A DNA stretch of 45,921 bases from Escherichia phage vB_EcoP-611R6, in the sequence record ON470589.1; one strand, given 5' to 3'. Below are positions 36,748 through 36,838 of the stretch, piece after piece (position 1 is the stretch's first letter; every line of letters starts with the position of its first letter). A model generated the notes under the pieces. It searched no databases. It saw only the letters and a list, made by a program, of their open reading frames with translations, and was not told where the DNA came from. The translations under genes and the position numbers were made by a program.

Positions 36748-36838
36748 ATGCAAGCATTTTGTTTTAGTTTTATGCTTGCTTGTATGTGTGTACAGTGTAT
36801 ATAATGCAAGCATACAACACAATAAAGGTGCTTGCATT
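36748..36838. promoter_or_regulatory. Divergent promoter with four palindromic half-sites ATGCAAGCAT / ATGCTTGCAT and a TATAAT -10 at 36799-36804
   Basis: Sites at 36748-36757, 36772-36779, 36804-36813 and 36829-36838, arranged as two inverted pairs; the last overlaps the downstream start. Confidence 0.4.

Follow-up and report, generated by a model that had tools for sequence, protein, structure and literature searches.

The window analysed here, a stretch of 45,921 nucleotides (nt) from Escherichia phage vB_EcoP-611R6 (ON470589.1), is a P22-like prophage in which an intergenic interval (36683-36838) separates a minus-strand hkcB-like gene from a plus-strand gene encoding a 322-amino-acid (322-aa) protein with a P63C domain. 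This interval harbors four copies of a short word, which follow one another along the plus strand in the order forward, reverse, forward, reverse. The sites, the predicted promoter elements and the gene in question are as follows:

36748 to 36757, plus strand: site 1, forward half-site, an exact ATGCAAGCAT with the core GCAAGCA
36772 to 36781, plus strand: site 2, reverse half-site, ATGCTTGCtT, which contains TTGCTT (36776-36781), the -35-like hexamer of the predicted rightward promoter
36800 to 36805, plus strand: -10 hexamer TATAAT, whose last two bases are the first two of site 3
36804 to 36813, plus strand: site 3, forward half-site, an exact ATGCAAGCAT, spanning the transcription start expected from the -10 at about 36812
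36824 to 36828, plus strand: predicted ribosome-binding site AAAGG of the P63C gene; relatives retain a purine-rich block here
36828 to 36837, plus strand: site 4, reverse half-site, gTGCTTGCAT, placed between the ribosome-binding site and the ATG
36839 to 37807, plus strand: P63C-domain gene, 322 aa (PF10546 at residues 199-286; phrog_2384), the candidate autoregulator

An earlier sequence-only reading of this stretch had noticed four half-site copies, all of which were found, and had located the first three correctly, the fourth ending at 36837 rather than 36838. Written as shorter words, site 2 corresponds to the 8-mer ATGCTTGC (36772-36779) and site 4 to the 9-mer TGCTTGCAT (36829-36837). 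The half-site had been called palindromic, but the 10-mer itself is no true palindrome; each of its two forms, ATGCAAGCAT and ATGCTTGCAT, is the reverse complement of the other, and the arrangement is therefore one of two inverted pairs, as that reading had described, with distances between half-site centres of 24 bp within pair A (sites 1 and 2), 24 bp within pair B (sites 3 and 4) and 32 bp between the pairs. Furthermore, TAATGCAAGCAT forms a perfect 12-nt direct repeat with its copies 56 bp apart, and ATAATGCAAGCA (36801-36812) and TGCTTGCATTAT (36829-36840) form a perfect 12-nt inverted repeat. The reported overlap of the last site with the start codon holds for the extended arm TGCTTGCATTAT, which shares the AT of the ATG (36839-36841), but not for the 10-mer, which stops 1 nt short of it.

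The best sigma-70 candidate in the interval consists of TTGCTT (36776-36781), an 18-bp spacer and TATAAT, the latter lying at 36800-36805 and not at 36799-36804 as first given. The two pairs do not flank this -10 hexamer, contrary to the sequence-only reading: pair A is situated upstream of it, placing site 2 over the -35, and pair B spans the region from the -10 to the ATG, with site 4 at about +17 to +26 relative to the predicted start. The sites overlap the -35, the -10 and the predicted start of the P63C gene promoter. For the leftward hkcB-like gene, a consensus scan of the interval yielded candidates matching at best 6-7 of 12 positions, and in many relatives the left side of the cassette is occupied by a terminator instead of a divergent gene; relatives borne on an insertion sequence (IS) do have a divergent transposase gene there. 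No credible leftward promoter was thus found (best candidate 7 of 12), and control of both divergent genes, as that reading had proposed, is unproven for the window.

The exact 10-mer occurs twice in the window against 0.55 occurrences expected, a mildly unusual count that was reached in 10 of 100 shuffles. A cluster of five sites (at most one mismatch) within 100 bp arose in none of 300 Markov simulations, and a cluster of four in 11 of 300. The only forward-N16-reverse pairs in the 45.9-kb window are the two at this locus, so that the search for the half-site elsewhere in the prophage, which the sequence-only reading had proposed, found no other pair, and the sites are private to the cassette. 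The case against chance from the window alone is moderate, and the comparative data are the decisive evidence.

In addition, TTCAAGCA (36674-36681), one mismatch away from the site word, overlaps the GTG start of the hkcB-like gene, a position that mirrors that of site 4 at the P63C gene start. HK620, which lacks the P63C cassette, carries TTCAAACA at the same place, and TTCAAGCA could be either a fifth weak site or a chance occurrence.

Conservation of the sites among relatives

Relatives of the 322-aa protein (41-100% identity) were compared at 75 viral-contig loci, 41 species-representative genome loci and 80 metagenome loci, with hosts in Enterobacterales, Beta-, Alpha- and Deltaproteobacteria, Acidobacteriota and Verrucomicrobiota. 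At about 100 related loci the core GCAAGCA was kept together with the order, orientation and spacing of the sites, the spacers being scrambled. In a MAFFT alignment of 21 diverged upstream regions (alignment A2), the invariant columns fell into the four blocks GCAAGCA, TGCTTGC, TGCAAGCA and TGCTTGCA, which coincide with the four sites and are separated by unalignable spacers; the information content reached 1.89 bits per column in the sites versus 0.81 outside. Upstream of proteins with 45-52% identity, the pattern TGCAAGCA ... TGCTTGCA ... TGCAAGCA ... TGCTTGCA-ATG was detected in Syntrophaceae, Burkholderia, Pseudomonas and an alphaproteobacterial metagenome-assembled genome (MAG). Four sites were present in Syntrophaceae, Gallionella, Burkholderia, Pseudomonas, Mesorhizobium and Acidobacteriota loci, and a Verrucomicrobiota locus (L116) had a degenerate site set only.

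A strict search for a full four-site chain returned 31 regions, with start-to-start spacings of 22-26 bp between sites 1 and 2, 28-33 bp between sites 2 and 3 and 23-25 bp between sites 3 and 4. In 29 of these 31 regions, the end of site 4 lay at most 1 nt inside the ATG or at most 3 nt ahead of it. The core of site 1 was invariant in the 31 regions chosen in this way, and the block was also invariant in the unselected alignment A2; the strict counts come from a search for the word itself, and the unbiased support is that of alignment A2. Some variants (L034, seven identical contigs in all, and L070) retain a single forward-reverse pair, apparently after a deletion between the direct repeats of sites 1 and 3; in L070 the P63C gene, too, is cut down to 108 codons. 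At two other loci, L107 and L112, all four sites were altered together to AGCAAGCA/TGCTTGCT.

The promoter elements are kept in register with the sites. Among 50 relatives, the -10 position, a hexamer whose final base is the first T of the TGCAAGCA in site 3, showed the base counts T39 A39 t22 A29 A44 T48 (consensus TAtAAT), and the -35 was the TTGC of site 2 with a spacer of 17-19 bp. As judged from these comparisons, the sites are the phylogenetic footprint of a predicted promoter with overlapping putative operators. Moreover, many cassettes, both in enterobacterial phages and in many environmental contigs, are bracketed by rho-independent terminators, of which the first precedes site 1 by about 15 nt and the second follows the gene. 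The P63C gene is therefore the only constant neighbor and partner of the sites. This gene was present in 46 of 5426 complete E. coli genomes.

The P63C protein as the candidate regulator

The P63C domain, named after p63 of phage Mx8, was recognized in the 322-aa protein by Pfam (PF10546) with 52.7 bits against a gathering cut-off of 26.1 (residues 199-286). The protein also matched phrog_2384 (E = 1.7e-104) and has at least 1682 homologues. The AlphaFold2 (AF2) model, with a mean predicted local distance difference test (pLDDT) score of 74.8, comprises two N-terminal helices, a confident alpha/beta domain (residues 43-175) and a poorly defined helical C-terminus. A search of BFVD returned weak matches only, to Bro-N, Ant-N and 'repressor domain' proteins, and hhalign of the P63C protein against the Ant protein of the prophage was negative. 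No match to a defence system was obtained in PADLOC or NCBIfam, and no functional literature on P63C or the GCAAGCA motif, or relevant work on IS1 passenger genes, was found.

A second class of cassettes links the type of operator to the N-terminus of the protein. At ten metagenomic loci (L174, L184, L186, L189, L192, L194, L196, L202, L205 and L207), the half-site was a different one, GGCAAGTATA, and the class II operator read TATACTTGCYCGGGCA ... GTCAAGA-N6-8-TCTTGAC ... CTCGGGCAAGTATA, about 95 nt upstream of each gene, with only a GCAAG core in common with class I. Of the 13 residues separating class II from class I proteins, 12 fall in the first ~40 residues, including a KAG insertion after Trp38. 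Over residues 1-42, the between-class identity was 0.47 versus 0.57-0.65 within the classes, and over residues 43-322 the between-class identity (0.58, 0.66) equalled the within-class level. A similar division was found within E. coli, where the proteins of the window and of locus L072 are 95% identical over residues 1-42 and 49% over the remainder, while the 156 nt upstream are 85% identical without gaps and the aligned site region is nearly invariant. These patterns fit an operator block and first ~40 codons that may be exchanged as one unit. The co-variation argument is only suggestive, because each class corresponds in part to a clade.

On this evidence the four sites are very probably protein-bound operator DNA. 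The binder is likely to be the P63C protein, in view of its gene being the only constant neighbor, the terminator-bounded cassettes and the co-variation of the operator type with the N-terminal ~40 residues; regulation by the adjacent 322-aa protein would also be the most economical reading. The effect would on balance be repression, and negative autoregulation by the P63C protein is a reasonably probable function of the sites as a whole. We infer protein binding, the role of P63C as binder and repression from sequence. In the proposed mechanism, the four sites would be the operator DNA of a self-contained cassette consisting of promoter, P63C gene and terminator, and a sequence-specific protein would read the 8-10 bp word (A)TGCAAGCA(T) in two inverted pairs with half-sites 23-24 bp apart. 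The P63C protein would probably bind as one dimer per inverted pair, and the four sites may cooperate. Pair A would cover the -35 and the DNA upstream, and pair B the stretch from the last bases of the -10 through the start to the ATG, with the first ~25 transcribed bases; RNA polymerase would be shut out by the bound protein, and the resulting negative autoregulation would keep the P63C protein at a low and steady level in the lysogen.

Several points weigh against autoregulation by P63C. The half-site distance of 23-24 bp is unusually large for a simple dimer, and no DNA-binding fold was recognised in the P63C protein by comparison of the model with solved folds or by sequence and fold searches of the PDB. 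Its N-terminal helices are modelled at low confidence (pLDDT 54-68). The strict site search was passed by only 31 of 52 distinct regions, the other 21 having one degenerate site or an altered geometry. Furthermore, a basic N-terminal motif, GGxARA..L..E.R..IA..AA.ARW, is common to class I and class II proteins, and the sequence-only reading had named the protein with the basic N-terminus as a possible autoregulator. Small stand-alone proteins with a GGxARA..RW motif, however, have no TGCAAGCA sites or comparable repeats in their loci, and L088, L089, L093 and L096, with a degraded motif, still keep sites 1-3. The motif alone fails to predict the sites and was rejected as the reading head. As for the dimeric regulator envisaged in that reading, the operator-like behavior of the sites and their linkage to the 322-aa gene are supported.

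The stand-alone proteins are about 80 aa long (L120-L127; L100, 2443-2993 on the minus strand; L090) and end in the motif GGxARA..L..E.RSEIA.KAA..RW. They repeatedly adjoin IS1-family transposase-like genes and once also a Bro-N protein, and GCAAGCA sites are absent nearby.

Binding of the operators by some other protein, such as a host global regulator, Mnt, Arc or an immunity repressor, or the IS transposase, is rather unlikely. It would be compatible with the unrecognised fold of the P63C protein, with the Mnt-like and Arc-like proteins encoded nearby in the window, and with the divergent IS1-family transposase, equipped with an N-terminal helix-turn-helix, that adjoins the sites at many distant loci. 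However, the sites are kept in terminator-bounded cassettes without transposase, Mnt or Arc, and a single host factor of identical specificity is not expected across hosts from several phyla. Changes of operator class also go along with changes in the N-terminal module of the linked protein, and further site pairs are absent elsewhere in the prophage, including the vicinity of the mnt/arc interval. No Arc- or Mnt-type gene was found among the neighbors examined or listed in the IS-borne and terminator-bounded cassettes of many phyla, and Mnt or Arc is an unlikely binder because the same sites occur in elements without them. The transposase was rejected as binder because the terminal inverted repeats of the IS (GGTGGTGCATCAGTTTGAA) do not contain GCAAGCA.

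The IS1-family element and other roles of the repeats

At many distant loci, a divergent IS1-family transposase gene (PF03400, NF033558) lies about 100 nt upstream, and a third, tighter dyad, ATGCTTAG-N3-CAAGCAT, is found near the transposase start, giving three dyads of differing half-site spacing. In one Kaistiaceae MAG, a 2.52-kb IS1-family element was present in four copies with 99.9-100% identity (L100, 473-2993; also L101, L102 and L108), each with the transposase gene on the minus strand, a control region of GCAAGCA sites, the P63C gene on the plus strand and two small open reading frames (ORFs). The element ends in terminal inverted repeats of about 19 bp (GGTGGTGCATCAGTTTGAA / GGTAGTGCGTCAGTTTGAA), and two of the four copies are flanked by target duplications of 6-8 bp (ACTTTT and GCGCTTG). 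The proposed layout of such elements is a left terminal repeat, the transposase gene, the multi-dyad GCAAGCA region, the P63C gene, small ORFs and a right terminal repeat. The right-end repeat also occurs about 300 nt downstream of the P63C gene at no fewer than nine other loci (L083, L084, L093, L097, L098, L103, L107, L112 and L114). Accordingly, the P63C gene and its control region are integral components of a widespread IS1-like element. Around the prophage copy of the P63C gene, no terminal repeats were found, and the prophage cassette looks like a captured derivative of the element that has lost its transposase.

Tentatively, P63C proteins could be sequence-specific DNA-binding accessory factors of the IS1-family element, which would control their own and the transposase promoters or even join in a DNA transaction at the dyads; the cassette at the sieA position would then have been captured together with its operators, and the exchangeable N-terminal module would set the specificity. 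The P63C protein may accordingly regulate transposition in its ancestral setting. The link between a common prophage accessory gene and an IS1-family element suggests how accessory cassettes may arise.

A related possibility appears improbable, namely that the sites served the ancestral mobile element first of all in recombination or transposition, in the manner of a res region, with regulation secondary and the arrangement a relic in the prophage. The location of the cassette inside an IS1-family element in distant relatives, divergent from the transposase gene, the four near-identical element copies in one genome and the three dyads of unequal half-site spacing, as in the res site of Tn3, would all suit it. 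Against it, neither Pfam and NCBIfam nor the sequence and fold searches of the PDB linked the P63C protein to a recombinase family, and transposase-free cassettes keep their sites constrained and locked to the -35, the -10 and the ATG, which argues for a transcriptional role there. No resolution systems are known in IS1-family elements.

It is equally doubtful that the repeats act as RNA, whether as fold-back hairpins hiding the ribosome-binding site and ATG or as a 1:2 / 2:3 / 3:4 attenuator under a 29-codon ORF (36715-36804). In predicted folds, RNA from 36740 to 36860 pairs site 1 with site 4 and site 2 with site 3 at -46.4 kcal/mol (z = -6.0), and RNA from 36795 to 36860, which includes the perfect 12-nt arms (36801-36812 and 36829-36840), reaches -17.5 kcal/mol (z = -3.4) with the ribosome-binding site and ATG buried; also, no terminator is predicted between the end of gene 16 (36352) and the cassette. 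However, compensatory changes were found at 0 of 15 putative pairs among 21 sequences, and 10 of 11 departures break the pairing; therefore, the base sequence is conserved and not an RNA stem. The conserved -10 puts the start within site 3, leaving the native mRNA without the 5' arm, and a leader beginning at 36812 is predicted to be unstructured (z = +1.3). Many cassettes have an upstream terminator and hence no read-through to guard against, hairpins need no common 8-mer in both stems, and Rfam returned only sub-threshold look-alikes of miRNA hairpins. RNA hairpins were rejected on these grounds, as was a leader peptide or attenuator, the 29-codon ORF being absent from diverged cassettes. 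The sites thus appear to be conserved as a word read by a protein, and the silencing of read-through transcripts from the late operon may be a by-product in this prophage.

Finally, a chance cluster or recent local duplication without function, compatible with the only mildly unusual count of exact 10-mers in the window, is already refuted by the comparative data, in which the four blocks are invariant despite dissimilar spacers and proteins of 41-50% identity, and the observed cluster was reached in no simulation.

Neighboring genes and comparison with known systems

The remaining features at the locus are as follows:

36353 to 36682, minus strand: hkcB-like gene, 109 aa, GTG start (phrog_5962; HK620 hkcB)
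36683 to 36747, no strand assigned: left part of the intergenic block, holding the ribosome-binding site of the leftward gene (36689-36693, minus strand)
37812 to 37835, plus strand: predicted intrinsic terminator ending the cassette, overlapping the 3' end of the convergent mnt-like gene

Along the prophage, genes 20 and 16 are followed by the hkcB-like gene, the P63C gene, the terminator, the mnt-like and arc-like genes (37823-38339), a 73-aa ORF, ant and the tailspike gene. The sequence is shared with HK620 up to about 36712, after which HK620 has a different gene, hkcC; since the likeness stops there, the promoter region and the P63C gene form a mosaic insert. The block 36683-36747, which begins at the leftward start codon and ribosome-binding site (CACACCAACCTCCTTAG) and ends at site 1, hardly differs among E. 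coli prophages with unrelated left genes (L002, L003, L039-L047 and L073-L078). As the leftward genes are unrelated but share this 5' block, different genes at the sieA position have thus been joined to one 5' region. The hkcB-like protein has one predicted membrane helix and, behind it, a coiled coil. A listed 134-aa ORF (36353-36757, minus strand) was rejected as a spurious 5' extension of this gene whose ATG happens to fall in site 1; the GTG at 36682 is supported as the real start by the phrog_5962 match from residue 26, by HK620 hkcB and by a GGAGG ribosome-binding site, and the annotated start is corrected here.

Some further observations concern the interval and the genes beyond the cassette. 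The 29-codon, Cys-rich ORF mentioned above (MIMCSWSSAVVMQAFCFSFMLACMCVQCI) starts at the position of the HK620 hkcC start, spans sites 1 and 2 and stops within site 3, and it is probably no gene, being unconserved in diverged cassettes. In the promoter spacer, TTGTATGTGTGTACAG (36780-36795) contains TTGT-N8-ACAG, a look-alike of the LexA box, and many enterobacterial cassettes likewise carry (C/T)TGT-N8-ACAG along with a conserved TACAGTG. The LexA box proper, CTGT-N8-ACAG, is not matched in the window (TTGT), and a CTG left half occurs in a few relatives (CTGT in L061, CTGA in L156); an SOS input through this element is possible. Downstream, the 73-aa ORF between arc and ant (38336-38557) is conserved (phrog_11805), and the listed Ant ORF (38554-39522) starts with the GTG at 38554, the P22-Ant-like sequence beginning at an internal MNSIAILEA (38617).

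Among known systems, the immI region of P22 carries the Mnt and Arc operators at the divergent Pmnt and Pant promoters, Mnt and Arc being ribbon-helix-helix proteins that act on single compact operators of about 17-21 bp. The present arrangement resembles immI in its short dyad operators over promoter hexamers, in its location in an accessory module and in a putative regulator encoded beside its own sites and autoregulating. It differs in having four half-sites in two wide pairs (23-24 bp) over a span of about 90 bp down to the start codon, and the linked protein is a 322-aa P63C protein with no recognised DNA-binding fold; the two systems show no sequence relationship. The lambda-type operators OR1-3 and OL1-3 are contiguous 17-bp dyads bound by helix-turn-helix dimers, and the C sites of P2 are direct repeats flanking the -10. 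Like these, the present set places several copies of one word over the -35, the -10 and the start, which would allow cooperative occupancy and autoregulation. In contrast to them, single words of 8-10 bp alternate in orientation, the last one lies between the ribosome-binding site and the ATG, and the word is the same across phyla, unusually for a phage operator.

In the res site of Tn3-family transposons, dimer-binding dyads of unequal spacing lie between the divergent tnpA and tnpR genes, and TnpR represses both. The IS-borne relatives are alike in having three unequal dyads between a divergent transposase gene and an accessory gene, whose product is the likely binder and would control both promoters. 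However, the transposase here is of the IS1 family (DDE), the accessory protein matches no serine or tyrosine recombinase, nothing indicates a recombination function, and the prophage copy is without transposase and terminal repeats. IS10 and IS50 are protected by fold-back inhibition of read-through transcripts, and the present repeats share with them a 5' arm upstream of the native start and a 3' arm over the ribosome-binding site and ATG, so that only foreign read-through would fold. Unlike in IS10 and IS50, the arms are conserved as sequence without covariation and are repeated upstream of the promoter, which points to recognition by a protein. By analogy, the arrangement would work like the classical promoter-overlapping operators of P22 immI, lambda OR and P2 C, from which it is set apart by its wide, alternating half-sites, the site before the ATG, a word shared across phyla and a regulator family without assigned function. 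Through this conserved word on its own promoter and start codon, the P63C domain gains a directly testable handle.

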